Assembly (NCBI GenBank): GCA_031082315.1
Contig: JAVHLC010000011.1
Location: 35,117 to 99,116, forward strand
Source: Thermodesulfobacteriota bacterium
GTDB taxonomy: Bacteria; Desulfobacterota; QYQD01
Reading direction: 5' to 3'
DNA length: 64,000 nucleotides
Positions 8,595 through 47,234 of this stretch are shown one piece after another. The notes under the pieces are model-generated. The model was not told where the DNA came from and searched no databases. It saw only the letters and a program-made list of their open reading frames with translations. How positions within the stretch are numbered: position 1 is the first letter of the stretch; each line of letters starts with the position of its first letter. The translations under genes and the position numbers were made by a program.

Positions 8595-9130
8595 TTCCTG
8601 TCAGCATGAACATGCATAGCGAGCGCATTCCCCGTTGCTTGCCATCCAGGTCCGACACTGGCGGGCAGCGGGGTTAGCGAGCGAATACGATGCATTTTAC
8701 CTTGCATACGGAGATTCCCCGCAGCTTGCTGCGGGGGGGCTTCAACATGGCTTAACGATAATGAGACCTTCCGGGCGGGGGCCTTTTTGTCCGGCTGTTT
8801 ATAATGCATCCTGTAATCTTCAATGGCCAGCATGAGGCCAAAGGCGATGGCTAAGACCAGAAATATCTTGATGATCCGTGGCCAGGATGGCCTTGTCTTT
8901 TCGATCCAGACAAGGAGTCTAACCAGAAGCCGGGTAAAAATCGCAGCCAGGCCTGAAGACCAGAAAATCTTTATTCCGGTTTCGCACATAGAGCGGCCAA
9001 CGTCTCCGGGGTAATAACGCAGGGCGATGAAAAACCAGCCTAAGGCGCAAACGGCCACAATGATCTTATCCCGTGTAGTCCAGATAGGGTTAAGAGACTC
9101 AGATTTTGTTGCCACTATCCCGTCCTTCAA
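8582..9130 (-). CDS. Hypothetical small membrane protein; the 3' third of the ORF is encoded by an A-family repeat
   Basis: Two or three predicted TM helices in the first ~120 aa. Codons after about aa 128 fall inside the repeat at 8606..8745, so the C-terminus is probably an insertion artefact. Confidence 0.35.
   Translation of the reverse strand: MKDGIVATKSESLNPIWTTRDKIIVAVCALGWFFIALRYYPGDVGRSMCETGIKIFWSSGLAAIFTRLLVRLLVWIEKTRPSWPRIIKIFLVLAIAFGLMLAIEDYRMHYKQPDKKAPARKVSLSLSHVEAPPQQAAGNLRMQGKMHRIRSLTPLPASVGPGWQATGNALAMHVHADRKCSG
8606..8745. repeat. A-family hairpin repeat, copy A1 (long form with the nested ~70-bp insert)
   Basis: Shares the core gaacatgcatagcgagcg...aatacgatgcattttaccttgcatacggagattcccc-[palindrome]-ggg(g)agcttcaa with the copies at 24464, 41228 and 45116. 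The apical palindrome is ccccgcagc-ttg-ctgcgggg. Confidence 0.8.
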
Positions 9131-14872: not shown

Positions 14873-17851
14873 CTACCAGCGCAGGGGTCTTTGCCAGGCC
14901 TCTTTGAGCCGGGCTATGGACGCCGATACCACTATATCACCTCTCAGGCCGTTACAAATCAGGATCGGCTCTTCAGTTACCCGGCCTATGCGGGCCAGGG
15001 TTGTACCCTGCATAACAGCGCTAAACGCCTCTTCTCTGTCCGGGTGAACAGTCACCACAAAACGGCTCTGGGATTCGGAAAAGAGGAGGAAGTCATCGCG
15101 TTCTATGTCCTCTTTGGGTACAGAGGCCAGGTCGATATTCATACCCAGCCCGCCGGCGAAGGCCGTTTCCGCCAGGGCCACCCCTAATCCCCCGTCCGAA
15201 CAGTCATGGCAGGAGGCCACCAGTCCTTCACAGATGGCCCCGGTCAGCCTCTCATAGCCAGCCCTTGCGGCTGCGGCATCCACTACAGGGACATTGTTTC
15301 CTATGTAACCGTGCCGGGCGAAGTATTCCGAGCCGCCCAGCTCCGGTTTAGTGAGACCTATGACATATACCAGGTCGCCCGGCTCCTTGGCGTCCATGGT
15401 TTGCACCCGCCGGACATCGTCGATCTTTCCCAAGACAGAAAAGAGCACCGTGGGCGGGATGGATATCTTTGTATTCTCCACGATGTAGTCGTTTTTCATG
15501 CTGTCCTTGCCGGAGATGCACGGCACGCCATAGGCCGTGGTGTAATCGTACAGGGCCTGATTGGCGCGGACCAGTTGGGCCAGTTTGTAGCGGCCGTCCG
15601 GCGTCTTTTCGGATTGAATGGGATCACACCAGCAGAAGTTATCCAGTCCGGCCAGATGCCTGATATCTCCGCCGGAGGCTATGGCGTTGCGTATGGCCTC
15701 ATCAATGGCACAGGCCATCATGTGATAGGTGTCTATATCACTGTAGCGGGGACAGATGCCGTTGGCTACCACAATCCCTTCAAAAGACGAGAGCACCGGC
15801 CTGATGACCGCGGCATCGCTGGGGCCGTCTCCATTTACACCGGAAAGGGGCTTGATAACGCCTCCGCCCTGTACCTCATGATCGTACTGCCGGACCACGT
15901 ATTCTTTACTGCATATATTCAGGCGGCCGAGCATGGTCTCCAGGGTGGAAGTGAGGTCTTCTACCTCCGGAATGTCCGGTTCAGGGTATTTAGGAGGCGT
16001 CCAGACGGCCACCATTTCCATCTGGGGCAGCCCGTTGTGGACAAATTCCATATTCAGGCAGGCTACTGTCTTTCCCTCATAGGTGACCAGGAACTCCCCG
16101 TTGTCATTAAAGCGGCCCAGAACCGTGGCCTCCACGCCCATTTTTTTGGCCAGGGCCAGGAAGGCGTCTTTATTATCCGGGGGCACGGCCAGGGTCATGC
16201 GCTCCTGGGCCTCGGAGAGAAATATCTCCCAGGGGTTAAGGCCGGCATACTTGAGCGGGGCTTTTTCCAGTTGAAGCTCAAAGCCTCCACAGTCCTGGGC
16301 CATTTCGCCTACGGAGGAGGAAAGGCCGCCGGCCCCGTTATCGGTTATGCTCCGGTAAAGACACAGGTCGCGGGCTACCAGGAGAAAATCCGTCATCTTT
16401 TTCTGGGTGATGGGGTCTCCGATCTGCACCGCCGTGGCCGGTGATCCTTCATGCAATTCTTCGGAAGAAAACGTGGCCCCATGTATGCCGTCTTTACCGA
16501 TGCGGCCGCCGGTCATGACGATAAAATCTCCCGGCTCGGCTTTTTTGATATGCGAAGGCCCGCCGCATACCACGGCCGGCATGATGCCGCCTGTCCCGCA
16601 GAATACCAGCGGTTTACCCAGATAGCGTTCATCAAATACGAGGCAGCCGTTTACGGTAGGGATGCCGCTTTTGTTCCCGCCGTGTTCCACGCCTTCCCGC
16701 ACGCCCTCAAAGATGCGTTTGGGGTGGAGGAGCCGGGGGGGCAGGGGCTTATCGTAATCCGGGGGCGCGAAGCAGAAGACATCGGTATTGAAGATGAGTT
16801 TGGCCCCTTTGCCGGTGCCGAAAGGGTCGCGGTTAACCCCGACTATGCCGGTAAGGGCCCCGCCGTAAGGATCAAGGGCCGAGGGACTGTTGTGGGTCTC
16901 AACTTTAAGGGCCAGGCTCCATTCCTCGTTAAATTTGATTACGCCGGCGTTATCACGGAAGACGGAAAGGCAGAAGTCGCTTTCCCCTTTGGCCTCACGG
17001 ATCAGTTGAGTAGATGCCTTTATGTAGGTGTCATAGAGACTGTTTATGGTGACAGTCCGGCCGGTTTCGTCCGTATAGTGGATGCGGCCGTTAAATATCT
17101 TATGCTTGCAGTGCTCGGACCAGCTCTGGGCCAGGCATTCCAGCTCCACATCCGTGACCTTTTCGCCCAGACCGAGACTCCGGCGATGGGCCAGCGCCTC
17201 AGGAGAGGTGATGTAATCCCGAATGACCTTCATTTCAGCAAGGTTAAGGGCCAGTACCCGCTCGCGGCTTATGGCCAGAAGTCTTTCATCACTCACCGCA
17301 AGATCAATCTCCTCAACGGTGGGACGTGTATCGGCGACTACCCTGGGAACAAGAGGCGGCATCCCCGTGGTCTTATCCCATTCAGATCGATCCTTGATGC
17401 GGAAACTCTGGATAAGGGTGTTGGCCAGGAGGCCGGTGGCTATGCGTTCTACGTCTTTCAGGGACAGATCACCGGCGAGGGCATACTGTGTAGAGGTATA
17501 AACCCCTTCGCCCCTGTTCAATTTCCGTCCGATGGCCAGTTCAAGGGATTCCCGGGCTGTTTTCCCCTCATTATCCGTCACACCCGGCCTGAACCCCACC
17601 TCGATAAGCCAATCAAATGCATCGGCCAAGGGGCGGTCAATGGAATACTCCTGGCTGATAGAGTCACAAAAGAGCTGGCCGGCCAATTCTTCTACCAGAG
17701 TGGAGTCAACCCCGGCATCAATCGTAAATACCTTGATAGTCCGCACGGAACGGACGGGGAGGTGGATATCCTCGTTGATCCTCTTTCGGATCTTCTCCCC
17801 AAAGGCATCACGCAGTGATTTTTTGAGCATTACTTCGATGCGGTGAATCAT
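14873..17851 (-). CDS. purL: Phosphoribosylformylglycinamidine synthase subunit PurL (long form with a PurS-like N-terminus)
   Basis: 992 aa. Contains AIR-synthase-related domains, glycine-rich loops and an N-terminal PurS-like segment. The long antisense ORFs inside it are shadow ORFs. Confidence 0.8.
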   Translation of the reverse strand: MIHRIEVMLKKSLRDAFGEKIRKRINEDIHLPVRSVRTIKVFTIDAGVDSTLVEELAGQLFCDSISQEYSIDRPLADAFDWLIEVGFRPGVTDNEGKTARESLELAIGRKLNRGEGVYTSTQYALAGDLSLKDVERIATGLLANTLIQSFRIKDRSEWDKTTGMPPLVPRVVADTRPTVEEIDLAVSDERLLAISRERVLALNLAEMKVIRDYITSPEALAHRRSLGLGEKVTDVELECLAQSWSEHCKHKIFNGRIHYTDETGRTVTINSLYDTYIKASTQLIREAKGESDFCLSVFRDNAGVIKFNEEWSLALKVETHNSPSALDPYGGALTGIVGVNRDPFGTGKGAKLIFNTDVFCFAPPDYDKPLPPRLLHPKRIFEGVREGVEHGGNKSGIPTVNGCLVFDERYLGKPLVFCGTGGIMPAVVCGGPSHIKKAEPGDFIVMTGGRIGKDGIHGATFSSEELHEGSPATAVQIGDPITQKKMTDFLLVARDLCLYRSITDNGAGGLSSSVGEMAQDCGGFELQLEKAPLKYAGLNPWEIFLSEAQERMTLAVPPDNKDAFLALAKKMGVEATVLGRFNDNGEFLVTYEGKTVACLNMEFVHNGLPQMEMVAVWTPPKYPEPDIPEVEDLTSTLETMLGRLNICSKEYVVRQYDHEVQGGGVIKPLSGVNGDGPSDAAVIRPVLSSFEGIVVANGICPRYSDIDTYHMMACAIDEAIRNAIASGGDIRHLAGLDNFCWCDPIQSEKTPDGRYKLAQLVRANQALYDYTTAYGVPCISGKDSMKNDYIVENTKISIPPTVLFSVLGKIDDVRRVQTMDAKEPGDLVYVIGLTKPELGGSEYFARHGYIGNNVPVVDAAAARAGYERLTGAICEGLVASCHDCSDGGLGVALAETAFAGGLGMNIDLASVPKEDIERDDFLLFSESQSRFVVTVHPDREEAFSAVMQGTTLARIGRVTEEPILICNGLRGDIVVSASIARLKEAWQRPLRW

Positions 17852-18078
17852 AGGCGGTAACTATAACAGACTCTATTTTTCTTTTCAAACACTTTCCCTC
17901 GCGCCCGTCTCCCGTCACTTGCGCGGGGCATGGAGGACTGAAACCCCACAACCCCCCCTTTTTGCTTGACGCCACCATCTTTTTTCTCTATGACTATGAA
18001 AAAAGACAGTCGACAGCTAAAATATAATGTTGGGCTAATCATGCCACTGTTGATACAGACACTGCGAGAGGTCCCTAA

Positions 18079-18885
18079 ATGAAAAATTATAAAGCCATAT
18101 TTGACGCTGTTGAGAAAACCCTAGTTGCGATTGGTTCACGAAATGTTCCAAGTGCAACAATTCGAGAACGGCTGGACGTTTTCAAGACTTTTGAGCAAAA
18201 GATCTTTTCGGATGGTGACTATTATGATCTCTTAGTTGCTATTCCTTTCTATGCAGGTATGCGGGCGGATGTTGTCTCCTCGAAACTCCCCACTATTCGC
18301 AGCCACTTTCCAGATTATGAAACAGTATCAGGATACACGGAGAGTAAGGTCAACGAAATTCTTAACGATCCCAGAATGATTAGACATGCAGGTAAAATAT
18401 CAGCGTGCATCAATAACGCACGAGCAGTCAAGGCCATGGTACAGAAGTATGGCTCCTTTCAAAAATATATTGATTCCTTCTCTCCGAGGCAGTCCCTCGA
18501 TAATCTCTTGCGGCTTCGAGCTGTGTTGATGCGTTCACCGTTCTCGCATTTGGGACGAGTTACTTCATACCATTTCCTCACAGACATAGGTATGCCTGTT
18601 CTAAAACCTGACCGCGTTATACAGCGCATCTTTTATAGATTAGGACTGATCCAGAGTGAGAAAGTCACAGACAAGCAACTGACGGAGACGATATTCGAAG
18701 GGCAAGCATTTGCGAAGGCAACCGGACACCCGATACGCTATATTGACGCCGTCTTTGTAGTATATGGGCAAGTCAGCCCTGAGAGTTTTGGCATACGTGA
18801 AGGCATTTGCCTGGCAAAGCGCCCCCGGTGCGAGGTATGTGGAATTCGCTCCTATTGTAATTACGAACCAAAAACGTCACGCTGA
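18079..18885 (+). CDS. tag: DNA-3-methyladenine glycosylase I (Tag)-family protein
   Basis: 268 aa. IRHAGKISACINNARA matches the Tag signature IRHRGKIQAIIGNARA. The C-terminus carries a CxxC zinc site (CEVCG). Confidence 0.6.
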   Translation: MKNYKAIFDAVEKTLVAIGSRNVPSATIRERLDVFKTFEQKIFSDGDYYDLLVAIPFYAGMRADVVSSKLPTIRSHFPDYETVSGYTESKVNEILNDPRMIRHAGKISACINNARAVKAMVQKYGSFQKYIDSFSPRQSLDNLLRLRAVLMRSPFSHLGRVTSYHFLTDIGMPVLKPDRVIQRIFYRLGLIQSEKVTDKQLTETIFEGQAFAKATGHPIRYIDAVFVVYGQVSPESFGIREGICLAKRPRCEVCGIRSYCNYEPKTSR

Positions 18886-18989
18886 GAGGACTTGCTGTAT
18901 CGCATCGATAGGATAGGGGCTAACTATCCGCCTGCAGCCGACGCCAGGTAACGTGGTTGGCTTTTCCCGGAGCGCAGTTTAGGACTTTA

Positions 18990-20085
18990 GGGGACGTCCA
19001 TAAATAAATAAATTGACACCAGATTAATATAATGCTATTTAACCGTTCATGCCAAGATTAGCCCGCCTGGATGCGCCCGGCGTATTACATCATGTTATTA
19101 TCCGAGGAATAGAGCGTCGAAACATATTTAAAGATAATAAAGATCGCGATAATTTTCTGGGGCGACTGGCTATCCTCCTGCCTGAAACCCAAACGGCCTG
19201 TTACGCATGGGCACTGTTGCCTAACCATGCCCATTTCCTGTTTCAAACCGGTAAGGTAGGTCTCTCCACTCTAATGCGAAGACTGCTTACCGGATATGCA
19301 GTCAGCTTTAACCGCAGGTACAATCGGCACGGGCAGCTTTTCCAAAACCGCTACAAATCGATTATCTGCCAGGAAGACGTTTACTTACAGGAATTGGTTC
19401 GCTATATACATTTAAATCCATTAAGGGCAGGGTTGGTTTCTGAACTGGGTGATCTTAACAAATATAAATACTGTGGACATAGCGTGTTGATGGGCAAGGT
19501 TAGGCGCCCATGGCAGGATACAAAATATGTACTGTCCTATTTTGGCAAGAATATTGGTGAGGCGAGAAGGAGTTACCTTTCCTATATAGAAGAAGCTCGG
19601 GATCAAGGCCGTCGGCCGGAACTGATGAGCGGGGGATTAATTCGAAGTCTTGGTGGGTGGGCAGAGGTAAAAAAGAGGCGGTTAAGAGGCCGGGATCGTG
19701 TTAAGGGAGATCAGCGCATATTGGGGGAGACCGATTTTGTAATGGAGATACTGGCGGAAGCTGATGAAAAGTATAATCGTTATTATGAACTGAAAAGCCT
19801 GGGATACGATTTAAAGACCGTGGAACGAAAAGTTAGTGAGATATACCGGATAGGACCGGAGGATATCTATAACAAAGGCCGGCAAAAGACGCGGGTAGAA
19901 GCCAGGAGTTTGTTTTGTTATTGGGCGGTGCGGGAACTAGGCTATGGGTTGACGGATTTGGCCAGACGTCTTGGTATGACCCAGCCAGCCGTGGGATATG
20001 CTGTAAGCCGGGGAGAGCGTATAGCCAAACAAAATAACCATCATCTGATTAAATGACTATTATTTACTTATTTATGGACGTCCCC
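18990..20085 (+). mobile_element. IS200-like / REP-associated tyrosine transposase (RAYT) element with 24-bp terminal inverted repeats
   Basis: The left end GGGGACGTCCATAAATAAATAAAT (18990-19013) and the reverse complement of the right end GGGGACGTCCATAAATAAGTAAAT (20062-20085) match at 23 of 24 positions. They enclose a single transposase gene. Confidence 0.7.
19049..20056 (+). CDS. Y1 (HuH) tyrosine transposase, IS200/RAYT family, with a C-terminal DnaA-C-like HTH extension
   Basis: 335 aa. Carries an HuH motif (PNHAHFLF) and the conserved Y-region. The C-terminal ~90 aa is HTH-like. Confidence 0.7.
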   Translation: MPRLARLDAPGVLHHVIIRGIERRNIFKDNKDRDNFLGRLAILLPETQTACYAWALLPNHAHFLFQTGKVGLSTLMRRLLTGYAVSFNRRYNRHGQLFQNRYKSIICQEDVYLQELVRYIHLNPLRAGLVSELGDLNKYKYCGHSVLMGKVRRPWQDTKYVLSYFGKNIGEARRSYLSYIEEARDQGRRPELMSGGLIRSLGGWAEVKKRRLRGRDRVKGDQRILGETDFVMEILAEADEKYNRYYELKSLGYDLKTVERKVSEIYRIGPEDIYNKGRQKTRVEARSLFCYWAVRELGYGLTDLARRLGMTQPAVGYAVSRGERIAKQNNHHLIK

Positions 20086-20231
20086 AAAAGGCTTTCACGG
20101 GTCAGAAAATTGCAATAGTCAGCATTGATAATTATGCTTACCTCGTTCCTTATATACAGGAAAGCGAAGAGATATTTTTAAAAACCATTATTCCCAGCCG
20201 AAAAGCTACAAAGAAATATGTGAGGTCATAA
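20086..20231 (+). pseudogene. brnT: 3' remnant of a BrnT/DUF497-family toxin gene, truncated at the IS right end
   Basis: The frame is open from the IR boundary and encodes ...GQKIAIVSIDNYAYLVPYIQESEEIFLKTIIPSRKATKKYVRS*. SARKATKKE is the DUF497 C-terminal hallmark. The stop lies 2 nt before the brnA ATG. No N-terminal part is found upstream of the IS. Confidence 0.5.
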
Positions 20232-20233
20232 AA

Positions 20234-20542
20234 ATGAAAAAGACGATCTTAGACGCTGAAGAGAAAGATATTTTAGAATCATATGAACGTGGAGAATGGC
20301 GGACTGTAAAAAATCAAAAGCAGGAAATAATAAAACTCCGTGAATATGCAAAGAATACACTTCAAAAAGATAAGAGAATAAATATCCGGATGTCATCCAA
20401 GGATCTGGATCAGGTACAGGTCATTGCTGCTCAAGAGGGCATTCCTTACCAAACACTCATATCCAGCATTATACATAAATACGTATCCGGCTATTTAACA
20501 GAGAAAAAGAGGACAAGGAAATTGGGGACAGTCATAAAATAA
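20234..20542 (+). CDS. brnA: BrnA-like antitoxin (ribbon-helix-helix/CopG-like)
   Basis: 102 aa. ...RINIRMSSKDLDQVQVIAAQEGIPYQTLISSIIHKYV matches the BrnA pattern (GxPYQT). Confidence 0.6.
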   Translation: MKKTILDAEEKDILESYERGEWRTVKNQKQEIIKLREYAKNTLQKDKRINIRMSSKDLDQVQVIAAQEGIPYQTLISSIIHKYVSGYLTEKKRTRKLGTVIK

Positions 20543-20682
20543 TGCAATTCTCTACGTGCTTGATTGAGAAGATCATATCACTTTAGTCTTTTGCGGACCC
20601 TGGGATTTTTAAATCTCTATCCCGATCGGGCCTCTATAATCACGCTTGACGTTATTCACGAGATGCGTTATTATGTGACGAC

Positions 20683-20961
20683 ATGATCAGATCATTCAAG
20701 TGTGAATACACCGAAGCGCTCTCAAAAGGCCGGCGTGTCAGGCAGTTTGTGAATATCGCTAAGGTGGCGCGGCGTAAGCTTAGACAGATCGAGATCGCCG
20801 GTCAACTTGATGATCTGAGGGTGCCACCCGGCAATCACCTTGAAGCACTCAAGGGTGATCGTTCCGGTCAATACAGCATTCGTATCAACGATCAGTGGCG
20901 TGTCTGCTTTCGTTGGACGGATGCAGGTGCAGAAAATGTGGAAATCGTCGATTACCACTAA
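20683..20961 (+). CDS. higB: HigB-type toxin (RelE/ParE superfamily)
   Basis: 92 aa. DDLRVPPGNHLEALKGDRSGQYSIRINDQWRVCFRW...VEIVDYH is a near-consensus HigB. A TTGACG-N17-TATTAT promoter lies upstream. Confidence 0.8.
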   Translation: MIRSFKCEYTEALSKGRRVRQFVNIAKVARRKLRQIEIAGQLDDLRVPPGNHLEALKGDRSGQYSIRINDQWRVCFRWTDAGAENVEIVDYH

Positions 20962-20973
20962 GGAGAATCCATT

Positions 20974-21306
20974 ATGAGCAAGCTCGAACCTATTACTCCC
21001 GGCGAGATCCTCTTGGAAGAATTTCTAAAACCTATGGGTCTTAGCCAGTACCGTTTAGCCAAGGAAATTGGCGTTCCCGCTCAGCGTATCAGTGAGATTG
21101 TCAAAGGTAAGCGTGCGATCACAGCTGATACTGATTTACGGTTGTGTCGGTTCTTTGGTCTATCCAACGGCTATTGGTTGCGCGCTCAGGCTGCCCACGA
21201 CACGGAGGTTGCAGAACGCACTCTTGGCCCATCGCTAAAGAAGATCAAGCCTTGGTCTGCGTATGCGACCCAGCCAAAGCTGTTGAAGCATGTCACACGT
21301 CCTTAA
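20974..21306 (+). CDS. higA: HigA antitoxin (XRE-family HTH)
   Basis: 110 aa. The HTH segment reads LSQYRLAKEIGVPAQRISEIVKGKRAI. It lies immediately downstream of higB. Confidence 0.8.
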   Translation: MSKLEPITPGEILLEEFLKPMGLSQYRLAKEIGVPAQRISEIVKGKRAITADTDLRLCRFFGLSNGYWLRAQAAHDTEVAERTLGPSLKKIKPWSAYATQPKLLKHVTRP

Positions 21307-21443
21307 GAATAAATGGAAAAGTAGCAATCCAAAAAGAAGACCCCACCGATAACATCTTCCTGACCCGGCCTTCTAACTGATTCATATACTTAGGCGACAT
21401 CCCTATATTGGCAAAGGTCAAGAAAGTCTTATTATCGAGACCG

Positions 21444-23135
21444 CTACTTCTGCGCCTTTTCTACCTTGGCCCAGGAATCACGTAAGGGCACGGTGCGGTT
21501 GAATACGAGTTTTTCATGAGAAGAGTCGGGGTCCACACAGAAATAGCCCTGCCGCTCGAACTGGTATCGACTGCCCGGTGCGGCATTGGCCAGGCTCGGC
21601 TCCACCCGGCATGACGTTAACGTCTCCAATGAATCAGGATTGAGATAGGTTTTAAAATCAGCCCCATCCTTATCCTCGCCTGGGGTTGCCTTTACAAAGA
21701 GATGGTCATATAAGCGCACCTCGGCCTCCAGCGCGTGGGCAGCCGAGACCCAGTGCAGCGTGGCCTTGACCTTGCGCCCGTCCGGAGAGTCCCCGCCCCG
21801 CGTCTCTGGGTCGTAGGTGCAGTGCAGTTCCACGACTTCTCCGGTCTGTTCATCTTTAACCACCCCCACACAGGTGATAAAGTACGCGTAACGCAACCGC
21901 ACCTCCCGGCCCGGGGCCAGACGGTAGAATTTTTTGGGTGGGTCTTCACGAAAGTCCTCTTGTTCAATATACAGCACGCGTGAAAAAGGGACCCTGCGTG
22001 ATCCCATGCCGGGATCCTCCGGGTTGTTCACGGCCTCCAGTTCTTCCACCCGGCCTTCCGGGTAGTTGTCAATGACCACCCGGAGTGGCCGCAATACCCC
22101 CATGACCCGCGGGGCGCGTTTGTTTAAATCTTCGCGGAGGCAGTGTTCGAGCAGGGCCATATCAACTATGCTATCCCTCTTGGCTACCCCGATGCGTTCA
22201 CAAAAGTCTTGGATGGACTCGGGCGTATAGCCGCGTCTCCGCAAGCCCGCCAGTGTAGGCATCCGAGGATCGTCCCAGCCGGTGACATAGCCCCCTTCCA
22301 CCAATTGCACGAGCTTTCGCTTACTGAGCACGGTGTAGCTGAGATTAAGGCGGGCAAACTCGATCTGCTGCGGGTGATGGACGCCTGATTGATCGAGGAA
22401 CCAGTCATAGAGCGGCCGATGGTCTTCAAATTCCAGAGTACAGATGGAATGGGTGATCCCCTCGATGGAATCCGAAAAACAGTGGGCAAAGTCGTACATC
22501 GGATAAATGCGCCACTTATCGCCGGTCCGGTGGTGTGCGGCCCGTAGAATACGGTACATGACCGGGTCCCGCATGTTTAAGTTGCCGGAGGCCATGTCGA
22601 TTTTGGCCCGAAGAACCCGGGAGCCGTCCTCGAATTCACCGGCCCGCATGCGCTCAAATAAATCCAGGTTTTCTTCGACCGGACGTGTTCGATACGGGCT
22701 GTCCTTGCCGGGCGCAGTCAAAGTACCCCGGTACTCCCGGATATCCTCTGGGCTCAGGTCGCAGACATACGCCTTGCCGGCCGTAATTAACTGCACGGCG
22801 TATCGGTAGAGTTGTTCAAAATAGTCTGAGGCGTAGAACAGCCGGTCACCCCAATCAAACCCCAGCCACCGGACGTCTGCCTTGATCGATTCTACGTATT
22901 CAACTTCCTCCTTGGTGGGATTGGTGTCATCGAAGCGCAGATTGCAAAGACCTTTGTATTCGGCGGCCAGACCGAAATTGAGGCAGATAGACTTAGCGTG
23001 TCCGATGTGCAGATAGCCGTTCGGCTCCGGCGGGAACCGGGTGTGGACCCGGCCCTGGTTCTTGTTGGCCTTCAGGTCTTCTTCGATGATATTACGGATA
23101 AAGTTGGATGTAGGCTTGGCATCAATAGTGGTCAT
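21444..23135 (-). CDS. glnS: Glutaminyl-tRNA synthetase
   Basis: 563 aa. Has HIGH (YLHIGHAKS) and MSK-type motifs, and a GlnRS-like anticodon-binding C-terminus. Confidence 0.8.
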
Positions 23136-23435
23136 GTTTACAGGTCCCTTCTATAAAAAACACAGCATTTCGAGATTGATTCCGGTTCTCGAGATGCGTT
23201 GTGCGCGGTCGGTATGATCTCTATATCCTAATTTTTTGGTTATTTCAATTGATTCAATAACCGGTAAAGAGAAAGGGAAGGGTATAGGTTTCAAAAGCTT
23301 GACACAGGTACTGGCCAGGATTAATTTAATAACAAATGAGTGATGGGTTAGAATGAAATAGCTCATCGCATATTATAAAGAAATACTTAGGGCCAATCTC
23401 TCGAAATTTTTTATCATAAAAAGGGGGTATACGAT

Positions 23436-24463: not shown

Positions 24464-24551
24464 TGAACATGCATAGCGAGCGAATACGATGCATTTTACC
24501 TTGCATACGGAGATTCCCCGTCCGCCCCAGGTGGACTGTGGGGAGCTTCAA
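24464..24551. repeat. A-family hairpin repeat, copy A2 (short form)
   Basis: Has the ctgaacatgcatagcgagcgaatacgatgcattttaccttgcatacggagattcccc-gtccgccccaggtggactgtgggg-agcttcaa core. Confidence 0.8.
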
Positions 24552-24586
24552 TTAGTACCGTCCCGCCTCTGACCACGAAAAATAGA

Positions 24587-24728
24587 CTTCTGGATTTTAT
24601 GCTATCGGCTTATCTAGTTGATATTTAAGGATAGTACCTTTTATTGTACTGTTTGCCAAATTGTAGTATCATCGCTTTTATATGCGAGTTTTGATGAAAA
24701 AAGTCGAGTCGATATAATATATAATGTT
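24587..24728 (+). repeat. C module copy 1: a ~140-bp duplicated AT-rich promoter-like segment
   Basis: About 88% identical to 45261..45400. Contains TTGATG-N16-TATAAT directly upstream of an RBS and the start of the protease gene. Confidence 0.75.
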
Positions 24729-41227: not shown

Positions 41228-41375
41228 AACTGAACATGCATAGCGAGCGCATTCCCCGCTGCTTGCCATCCAGGTCCGACCCTGGCGGGCGGCGGGGTTA
41301 GCGAGCGAATACTATGCTTTTTACCTTACATACGGAGATTCCCTGTCCGCCGCAGGCGAACTGCGGGGAGCTTCA
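41228..41375. repeat. A-family hairpin repeat, copy A3 (long form) in the EF-G paralog 5' region
   Basis: Same core as A1, including the nested ~70-bp insert flanked by agcgagcg direct repeats. The apical palindrome is ccgcag-gcgaa-ctgcgg. Confidence 0.8.
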
Positions 41376-41555
41376 ATCTTTATTCACAAGTTTTTGCAAA
41401 ATATCGACTTAAAATTTTAAAGTCAAGCCTTAATTGTAATAGTTCACCGCAGAGTGCGCAGAGAACGCCTCTGCCTGCCCGCCTTGCCTTGGATGCTTGA
41501 GTCCGGTGATTAAGGTTTTTCTTTTTTGTGTCGATATAGTTGGCGTAGCTTGTTG

Positions 41556-45174: not shown

Positions 45175-45260
45175 ATTTTCCACTGTGCCGCCGCCAAATA
45201 ATAAATTGCCATAATTACGTCGAGTCGACATAACATCGATAATTACAATAAAAAGCAGAC

Positions 45261-45400
45261 CTCCGGATTTTATGCTATCGTCTTATGTAATTGATATTTA
45301 ATTGCATTTCATTTTATTGTACTGTTTGCCAAATTGTAGTATCATCGCTTTTATCTGCGAGTTTTGATGAAAAAATCGAGTCGATATAATATATAATGTT
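45261..45400 (+). repeat. C module copy 2 (duplicated promoter-like segment)
   Basis: About 88% identical to 24587..24728. Lies upstream of the 115-aa gene. Confidence 0.75.
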
Positions 45401-46924: not shown

Positions 46925-47234
46925 AAATTCCGCATAACAAGTTGTCCGAGCCGACGCCGCAAAAACCAGCCCCGTAGGGTGGGCTTTGCCCACCGAAACC
47001 CCTGGACACCGGGGTTCACCGGTGTGACGACTTTTGCAAGAGTCTCGGAGGAATAAACCTCGGGTCTTTGTCCGCAGTCCGCCACGACATCATCCAAGAA
47101 ATGGCCCGGGTCATCGAGATTCTAGTGTCGCTTCCAGGCCTATCCCAGGCATGCTCCCCTTAGACAAAAAATAGCATGTTAACATTATGCAGGTATTATT
47201 TGACAAATAGTTTAACTTAATGTGAATTAACGGC

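Follow-up and report, generated by a model that had tools for sequence, protein, structure and literature searches.

A TIRtron beside a truncated BrnT-like toxin gene and a toxin-less antitoxin gene in a Thermodesulfobacteriota bacterium

REP-associated tyrosine transposases (RAYTs; REP, repetitive extragenic palindromic sequence) are mostly encoded by single-copy genes that are inherited vertically (PMC5581495). A set of RAYT-like genes flanked by terminal inverted repeats (TIRs) was named TIRYT, and the units containing them TIRtrons, by Di Nocera et al. (2013; PMC3733652); the TIR motif given for them, GGGGWSAS, holds for the majority and not for all of them (PMC3733652, PMC6006769). The TIRYT proteins were later assigned to TnpA_REP subclass 2.1 (2.1.2), with a C-terminal helix-turn-helix (HTH) domain resembling Bac_DnaA_C and without REPs (Quentin et al., 2018; PMC6006769); across subclass 2.1 as a whole this HTH is of the Bac_DnaA_C, HTH_23 or HTH_28 type (PMC6006769). 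Here we describe a member of this class, which has been described already and is little studied, in a 64,000-nucleotide stretch of contig JAVHLC010000011.1 from a Thermodesulfobacteriota bacterium (hereafter the window, to whose first letter all positions refer). The element is a TIRtron with a TIRYT gene of TnpA_REP subclass 2.1, and it lies directly beside the 3′ remnant of a BrnT-like toxin gene whose antitoxin gene is intact.

The element resembles published TIRtrons in encoding a RAYT-like HUH-Y1 protein, longer than RAYTs and with a C-terminal Bac_DnaA_C-like HTH, in having long TIRs that start with GGGG, stand at fixed short distances from the gene and lack REP hairpins, and in the occurrence of solo, dimeric and clustered TIR copies elsewhere. 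It departs from them in its terminus, GGGGACGT, which agrees with GGGGWSAS at six of the eight positions rather than in full (the clade consensus is gGGGACGtcCaTaAa), and in its numbers: whereas published TIRtrons are mostly single genes, this Desulfobacterota clade is multicopy and insertion sequence (IS)-like, with near-identical copies in several contexts. With IS200/IS605 elements such as IS608 it shares an HUH Y1 transposase that matches Y1_Tnp, a small size and the absence of any observed target-site duplication. The IS200/IS605 family, however, has no TIRs, and its members rely on hairpins in subterminal position and on a particular tetra- or pentanucleotide in the flank. The present element has TIRs of 24-30 bp, an added HTH domain and no hairpin at either end, and therefore does not belong to that family. 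The RAYT/REPIN systems, such as TnpA_REP/YafM of E. coli and the RAYTs of Pseudomonas, are similar in that the catalytic domain best matches REP_Tyr_transpos, the gene lies between inverted copies of a repeat, and further copies of the repeat are dispersed, either singly or in inverted doublets of about 70 nt. In contrast to them, the element has no GTAG-tagged palindromic REPs and its repeat is unfolded, while its transposase gene, unlike typical domesticated RAYT genes, is multicopy and mobile; termini without a GTAG hairpin, together with multiple copies and horizontal spread, set it apart from this group. A first-pass annotation of the window had called the element 'IS200/RAYT-like', of which the RAYT-like part can be kept for an HUH-Y1 unit with TIRs; IS200 is too loose, and TIRtron/TIRYT is the precise class.

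A scan of one genome per species returned 188 relatives of the transposase, mostly from metagenome-assembled genomes (MAGs) of Desulfobacterota. Most are bracketed in the same way, by inverted repeats of 20-39 bp that start with (G)GGGACG, begin about 60 nt before the ATG and finish 10-30 nt after the stop codon. For the 43 elements in which both termini were recovered, left and right ends have a median identity of 83% over 30 nt. The parts of the window element are as follows.

18983-20091, forward strand: whole TIRtron, an IS-like element of about 1109 bp; limits from flank comparison of independent copies, the right one uncertain by 1-2 nt.
18990-19013, forward strand: left TIR core, GGGGACGTCCATAAATAAATAAAT; exact pattern, none in shuffles; terminus profile E=1.9e-6.
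19013-19041, forward strand: putative transposase promoter, TTGACA-17 nt-TATTTA, ending 8 nt before the ATG; read from the sequence.
19049-20056, forward strand: TIRYT gene, encoding an HUH-Y1 transposase of 335 amino acids (aa; H60, H62, Y119) with a C-terminal DnaA_C-like HTH; from Pfam, NCBIfam and relatives.
20062-20085, reverse strand: right TIR core, GGGGACGTCCATAAATAAGTAAAT; pattern and repeat finder; terminus profile E=2.9e-5.

The terminus profile used here was built from 118 family termini. The inverted repeats, GGGGACGTCCATAAATAA(A/G)TAAAT, had been recognised in the first-pass annotation as bounding the element, and rightly so: the arms at 18990-19013 (forward) and 20062-20085 (reverse) agree at 23 of 24 positions. 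Within the window there are exactly two copies of the 24-mer GGGGACGTCCATAAATAARTAAAT, and 100 shuffles gave none. A repeat finder lengthens the arms to 29 nt (18985-19013 and 20062-20090, 93% identity), and the element does not stop at 18990 and 20085, as had been proposed, since comparison with independent copies moves both ends outwards. On the left, GACTTTA|GGGGACG is common to three independent contexts (the window, locus L003 and the pair L135/L140), and the flanks diverge up to the shared GACTTTA, which places the left end, GACTTTAGGGG, at about 18983. On the right, the window and L166 are alike (CCCCAA(AA)GG) up to CCCCAAAAGG and CCCCAAGG, respectively, and diverge thereafter, which places the right end at about 20091. 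The outer bases are mirrored at both ends of many relatives, in agreement with these wider limits; the GACTTTA could belong to the element or to the target, and the mirrored bases favour the element. In the proposed check for a target duplication or flanking motif, no target duplication was seen at this locus or in the multicopy relatives. Neither TIR forms a REP-like hairpin, and the TIRs, like a junction motif described below, fold no better than shuffled sequences (z-scores from -0.1 to +0.9).

As had been claimed, a single HUH Y1 transposase gene accounts for the interior of the element. The only open reading frame (ORF) between the TIR arms (19049-20056, 335 aa) matches Pfam Y1_Tnp well above its gathering score (E=1.6e-11, 44.8 bits against 23), and each of H60, H62 (both in the HUH motif) and Y119 (in RYIHLNP) is conserved without change in at least 98% of the 73 full-length relatives compared. 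The top NCBIfam match is REP_Tyr_transpos, the REP-associated tyrosine transposase family (E=3e-19, 69 bits against a cut-off of 80), and the PDB holds no match by sequence at E<=0.01. The C-terminal HTH extension proposed earlier is recognisable in residues 257-319 as a Bac_DnaA_C-like match (E=8.6e-6) with a score of 26.1 bits, under the cut-off of 31.5; the C-terminus of DnaA (TIGR00362) matches at E=0.008. In 43 of 70 left ends of the family, and in none of 48 right ends, the TIR is followed by TTGAC, which would fit a promoter whose -35 box is part of the left end of the element. A consensus promoter scanner did not place the 19013-19041 site among its listed sites, and no terminator-like site was predicted in 18850-21500. 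To the right of the element the following features are found.

20093-20097, no strand: 5 nt, TTTCA, between the element end and toxin DNA; unmatched in the L166 element and in the toxin gene of L196, L001 and L002.
20098-20231, forward strand: 3′ remnant of a BrnT-like toxin gene, codons 47-90 and stop, a pseudogene; 97% identical to L001/L002 and colinear with L196.
20234-20542, forward strand: BrnA-like ribbon-helix-helix (RHH) antitoxin gene, intact, 102 aa, toxin-less; CopG_antitoxin and BrnA matches sub-threshold.

The remnant frame ends with the TAA at 20229-20231, reading ...KAFTGQKIAIVSIDNYAYLVPYIQESEEIFLKTIIPSRKATKKYVRS (also ...GQKIAIVSIDNYAYLVPYIQESEEIFLKTIIPSRKATKKYVRS), and has no canonical start codon from which a product of at least 30 aa could be made. 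Homology to toxin-gene DNA begins at 20098, so that 44 codons and a stop remain, rather than the approximately 48 residues first reported. That the fragment is the C-terminal piece of a toxin is upheld, in that it corresponds to the 3′ part of a 90-aa toxin gene; its assignment to DUF497/BrnT falls under the formal threshold. The full-length toxins of L001 and L002 span positions 1-76 of the 77 in the BrnT_toxin profile (PF04365/DUF497), at E=1.4e-5 and 4.9e-7 and 25.7-30.4 bits against a gathering score of 34.5, and are best described as divergent BrnT-like proteins. By itself, the 47-aa remnant has no BrnT_toxin match in Pfam; a search with it found 641 homologues, the best at 93% identity. 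Many of the homologues have been called from internal methionines, and the DNA of L001 and L002 gives a 90-aa ORF, MKVFRWDNEKNEWL...KKYVRS.

The antitoxin gene keeps a GAGG ribosome-binding site and starts with the ATG at 20234, 2 nt past the toxin stop, the position and spacing of a brnTA pair. The earlier description of a BrnA-like RHH antitoxin agrees with this spacing, the matches to CopG_antitoxin (Pfam PF12441: E=5.8e-6, 27.4 bits, cut-off 28) and to BrnA itself (NCBIfam NF047399: E=1.3e-3, 18.9 bits, cut-off 60) both being sub-threshold. With BrnT/BrnA of Brucella abortus the pair has in common a toxin-first order, the 2-nt gap, an RHH/CopG antitoxin and a toxin that aligns over the full profile. 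It differs in that both partners score below threshold and that the toxin in the window is a promoterless 3′ stump, and an RNase role could be proposed for this toxin by analogy only.

An uninterrupted form of the locus, which the first-pass annotation had suggested seeking, was found by exact look-up of the HigB protein encoded further along in the window. This relative, L196 (JAQTPX010000085.1), has in order a 90-aa toxin, a 102-aa antitoxin, an identical HigB, HigA and glnS, and is colinear with window 20098-23251 at 97.7% identity. At the breakpoint, 20097/20098, L196 reads ...GATAAGTATC|CGGGTCAG and the window ...CCCCAAAAGGCTTTCA|CGGGTCAG. The comparison indicates that the window has lost the toxin-antitoxin promoter and toxin codons 1-46. 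Neither of the refuting conditions set beforehand holds: the fragment is significantly similar to the toxin family, and the relative carries the full gene at this position, not a short independent ORF. The N-terminal half of the toxin, already reported absent from the left of the element, was not found anywhere in the 64 kb by protein (best E=1.0) or DNA search. At 21347-21368 on the reverse strand, a 14-nt exact match (21347-21360) to toxin codons 30-34 (GGAAGATGTTATCG; BLAST E=0.044) adjoins CCGGGTCAG, a 9-nt match to the toxin breakpoint sequence, in inverted orientation; their order is wrong for a simple inversion, and the match is treated as chance. The stump, lacking both promoter and start codon, is a pseudogene. 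As the stretch from the transposase gene to brnA contains no predicted terminator, read-through out of the transposase gene is the only evident way in which the antitoxin gene would now be transcribed.

Since only 5-6 nt separate the break from one end of a mobile element, the simplest history is an insertion followed by loss of the DNA on the left. It is quite probable that the TIRtron entered the BrnT-like toxin gene, that the left-hand DNA was then lost, and that the antitoxin was orphaned in this way. By analogy with RAYT and IS200/IS605 chemistry, the HUH/Tyr transposase would nick single-stranded DNA at the GGGGACG termini, the two TIRs on one strand could pair as a panhandle, and no target duplication would be made. 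Insertion would have taken place at codon 46/47, and the toxin-antitoxin promoter and codons 1-46 would have been removed afterwards, either by a deletion next to the element or by recombination with another copy, each of which would set the 3-methyladenine-glycosylase gene side against the left end of the element. The toxin is dead, and the antitoxin would depend on transposase-gene read-through. Toxin-first loss is a tolerated route of toxin-antitoxin decay. The first-pass suggestion that the insertion or an associated deletion removed the toxin half is accordingly still the most likely account, resting as it does on adjacency across a 5-nt filler.

Several observations weigh against so simple a course of events. 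The TTTCA at 20093-20097 belongs to neither the element nor the toxin, and neither a target duplication nor the left-hand toxin half survives as proof of direct insertion. Exact-protein look-ups of BrnA, the glycosylase and P0121 brought up no relative in which the left junction is empty, and homologues of the glycosylase fall from one match of 100% to 59%. In the close relatives L135 and L166 the DNA flanking this element differs on both sides, so the history must be more complex than one insertion and one deletion. L135 is 94% identical to the window on the purL side (15621-18041) and has the element at a similar distance from purL, with other genes between the two and without the glycosylase gene there. 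Moreover, the same toxin has been 5′-truncated independently in L197 (200-382; ERZ27248265 k141_2800567), where unrelated codons form its N-terminal part, an intact antitoxin of 94 aa comes after it, and there is no TIRtron at the break, about 10 nt from that in the window. Finally, the BrnT, BrnA, REP_Tyr_transpos and Bac_DnaA_C matches all stand below curated cut-offs.

The first of these points, together with L197 and the strain-to-strain variation of the purL-glnS island, would also fit a truncation that had nothing to do with the element, the TIRtron having landed later beside the stump or having come with the same rearrangement. This we consider unlikely, because the break is so close to the end of the element and because the right end of the same element in L166 also abuts a cut-down cassette gene, reduced to its last ~17 codons and lying directly before higBA, a pattern expected of element-adjacent rearrangement. 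It is the adjacency, then, that points to the TIRtron as the cause of the truncation. Taken with L197, the window suggests that toxin-first loss recurs in this toxin family. Recurrent TIRtron hits on this toxin were considered and rejected, L197 being truncated without a TIRtron and L001 having only a C-terminal remnant beside an intact cassette. That remnant (L001 1207-1347), from a truncated gene for another TIRYT, retains 47 C-terminal aa (40% identity, E=2.7e-8) and lies about 75 nt 3′ of an intact copy of the same toxin-antitoxin cassette.

The other copies with the same TIRs whose existence had been asked after proved to be present in L003, L135, L140 and L166, in at least three other contexts and at 96-99% identity. 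In L003 (MAG273, JBFMFO010000012.1; 2381-2942) a 98% identical copy lies inside a homologue of glnS, the contig stopping within the element, and this host glnS is only about 85% identical to that of the window. Copies of 96-99% identity in L135 and L140, from two metagenomes, have one common left flank unlike that of the window, and the L166 copy (98%) has a right flank unlike that of the window. In the long-read MAG MFD02416.bin.2.25 there are at least six copies of one subfamily at 96-98% identity, plus two of another; homology ends at the termini, and a target duplication is absent. Near-identical copies in other contexts, together with copy number, thus mark the element as mobile, as judged from sequence comparison, and the view of TIRYT elements in Desulfobacterota as active HUH-type transposons, present in multiple copies and giving rise to miniature doublets and solo termini, is well supported. 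A domesticated, immobile RAYT-like housekeeping gene with REP-like regulatory repeats, coincidentally next to a toxin stump, would accord with the usual single-copy, vertical inheritance of RAYTs, with the one copy in the 64-kb window and with the many solo and doublet termini in metagenomes. It is nevertheless very improbable in view of the near-identical copies in differing flanks, including glnS of the 85%-identical host, the copy number within one MAG, and TIRs that lack hairpin potential, with z-scores near zero or positive.

Taken alone the locus is ordinary, a mobile element having probably disabled a toxin and left an orphan antitoxin. Its value lies mainly in the element, for which it adds natural evidence that TIRtrons move as units: an occupied site set against an uninterrupted one at 97.7% identity, a copy inside glnS of another host, and at least six copies in one genome. 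The mobility and mechanism of TIRtrons are not known to have been demonstrated, and the class is sparsely covered in the literature searched (PMC3733652, PMC6006769). The relatives fix the true ends a few bases outside the GGGG, with no target duplication and with a putative promoter in the left end, and so supply defined substrates for the biochemistry of a Y1 HUH transposase that uses inverted repeats, not hairpins.

The exact 24-mer is present in 113 metagenome contigs, where some copies bound transposase genes, others are combined in inverted doublets (about 70 nt) or in pairs spanning about 200 nt, and many are solo, at times three or four on one strand. Inverted terminus doublets of ~70-85 nt occur in L150, L151, L183, L085 and L089, and L137, L147, L164 and L194 have terminus pairs of ~120-210 nt, the size of miniature inverted-repeat transposable elements (MITEs), with no transposase between them. 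Such doublets and pairs resemble REPINs or MITEs, which TIRYT could mobilise in trans, and the solo/doublet pattern fits the TIR repeat families of Di Nocera. Among 150 sampled ORFs within 400 nt of solo copies were PIN (5), HicA (3), DUF433 (2), DUF5615 (2) and MazE (2) members, toxin-antitoxin families that are absent from the top 25 families of 150 ORFs at least 2.5 kb away; toxin-antitoxin genes are enriched near solo termini and a minority of the ORFs there, so a dominant association was rejected. Same-strand solo termini stand among VapBC, HicAB, MNT-HEPN, RelE-type and DUF5615/DUF433 genes in L146, L173, L143/L180, L187, L171 and L095. Truncated terminus copies lie just outside 10 of 100 ends, compared with 10 of 331 control windows (p=0.011); in L045, L053, L083, L090, L094, L123, L148 and L158 they are found 0-12 nt outside an intact end (e.g., ...GGGGACGTCCA). 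These may reflect either insertion of the element into its own end sequence or a by-product of transposition.

Beyond the orphaned antitoxin the window continues with the following features.

20516-20577, forward strand: cassette-junction repeat (GGAAATTGGGGACAGTCATAAAATAATGCAATTCTCTAC...) resembling a TIR terminus; third-best terminus-profile site, E=0.11.
20683-20961, forward strand: higB toxin gene, 92 aa; HigB-like_toxin (PF05015) E=9.4e-19, 68.1 bits against 27.
20974-21306, forward strand: higA antitoxin gene, 110 aa; TIGR02607 HigA E=3.2e-29, 100.6 bits against 47.7.

The higBA pair, which starts 140 nt past the brnA stop, is intact, as the first-pass annotation had it, with both scores above their cut-offs, and with a promoter-like site of its own at 20646-20674 it has been left untouched. 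It resembles HigB/HigA in being a toxin-first operon of a RelE-fold HigB and an HTH HigA, and nothing notable differs. In relatives a junction repeat specific to the lineage flanks the cassette. The low-GC island to which these genes belong (17900-21400, 36-49%; remnant toxin-antitoxin pair about 36%) lies between purL and glnS (55-60%) and comprises the glycosylase gene and both toxin-antitoxin modules along with the element; the close relatives L135, L166 and L196 differ in its content.

The junction repeat, of ~40-60 nt, has the form GGAAAT(T/C)(A/G)GG(G/C)ACA..CAT.A.ATAATGCAATTCT and does not fold better than shuffles. Besides the window (20516-20577), copies are found in L196 (1154-1215), in L166 (reverse complement; 863-900 and 1596-1653), where they stand on both sides of higBA as direct repeats, and in L003 (1506-1545), where the repeat overlaps the stop codon of an unrelated BrnA-like ORF. 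In every instance the upstream antitoxin, whether BrnA-like or HigA, takes its final residues and its TAA from the repeat. On these grounds the repeat is a lineage-specific native repeat of a strain-variable array of toxin-antitoxin cassettes; its likeness to a TIRtron terminus is suggestive and, alone, not statistically secure. A remnant of a composite or double insertion, with the toxin-antitoxin pair enclosed by the right TIR and by a degenerate third one at 20524, is scarcely credible. In its favour, the terminus profile gives 20518-20555 as its third-best site in the window after both true ends, the stretch GGGGACAG fits the published GGGGWSAS, and homology to the L001/L002 cassette stops 11 nt before the motif. 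Against it, L196 has both the motif and the 102-aa antitoxin beside an uninterrupted toxin, with no element in the 596 nt of its available upstream sequence, which contradicts a broken element end, and the motif forms direct repeats around higBA in L166 and follows another antitoxin in L003.

A more speculative and rather improbable proposal is that the junction repeat, GGGGACAGTCATAAAATAAT..., could be a TIRYT recombination site and the purL-glnS island an HUH-shuffled cassette array, a functional analogue of an integron. It draws on the resemblance to the terminus (profile E=0.11), the strain-differing order of cassettes and the enrichment of toxin-antitoxin genes near solo termini. Integron attC sites are made up of paired R″ (RYYYAAC) and R′ (GTTRRRY) cores on a folded bottom strand. 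Around the L001/L002 cassette GTTAAGC is found upstream and GCTTAAC downstream, with no closing R′ site and no fold, and an attC site was rejected.

The end of higA and the DNA that follows it in the window (21285-21330; TGTCACACGTCCTTAAGAATAAATGGAAAAG) resemble a diverged junction repeat, and HigA of L166 ends in a well-preserved copy (...RKLGTAMK*). Near the TIRtron copy in L003, a canonical BrnT (E=1e-28) and a partner gene occupy 956-1529. Other repeats are also present in the window. A family of ~140 nt is found at 8607-8745, 41230-41377 and 24474-24553, and one of ~220 nt at 45180-45399 and 24575-24727; both are MITE-like in look and shared with L196, in which one is inserted upstream of the toxin-antitoxin cassette. 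At 46968-47007 there is a GTAG-tagged hairpin typical of REP, CCCGTAGGGTGGGCTTTGCCCACCG, which recurs in L003, L135 and L140, and the lineage seems to have classical REPs besides its TIRtron termini.

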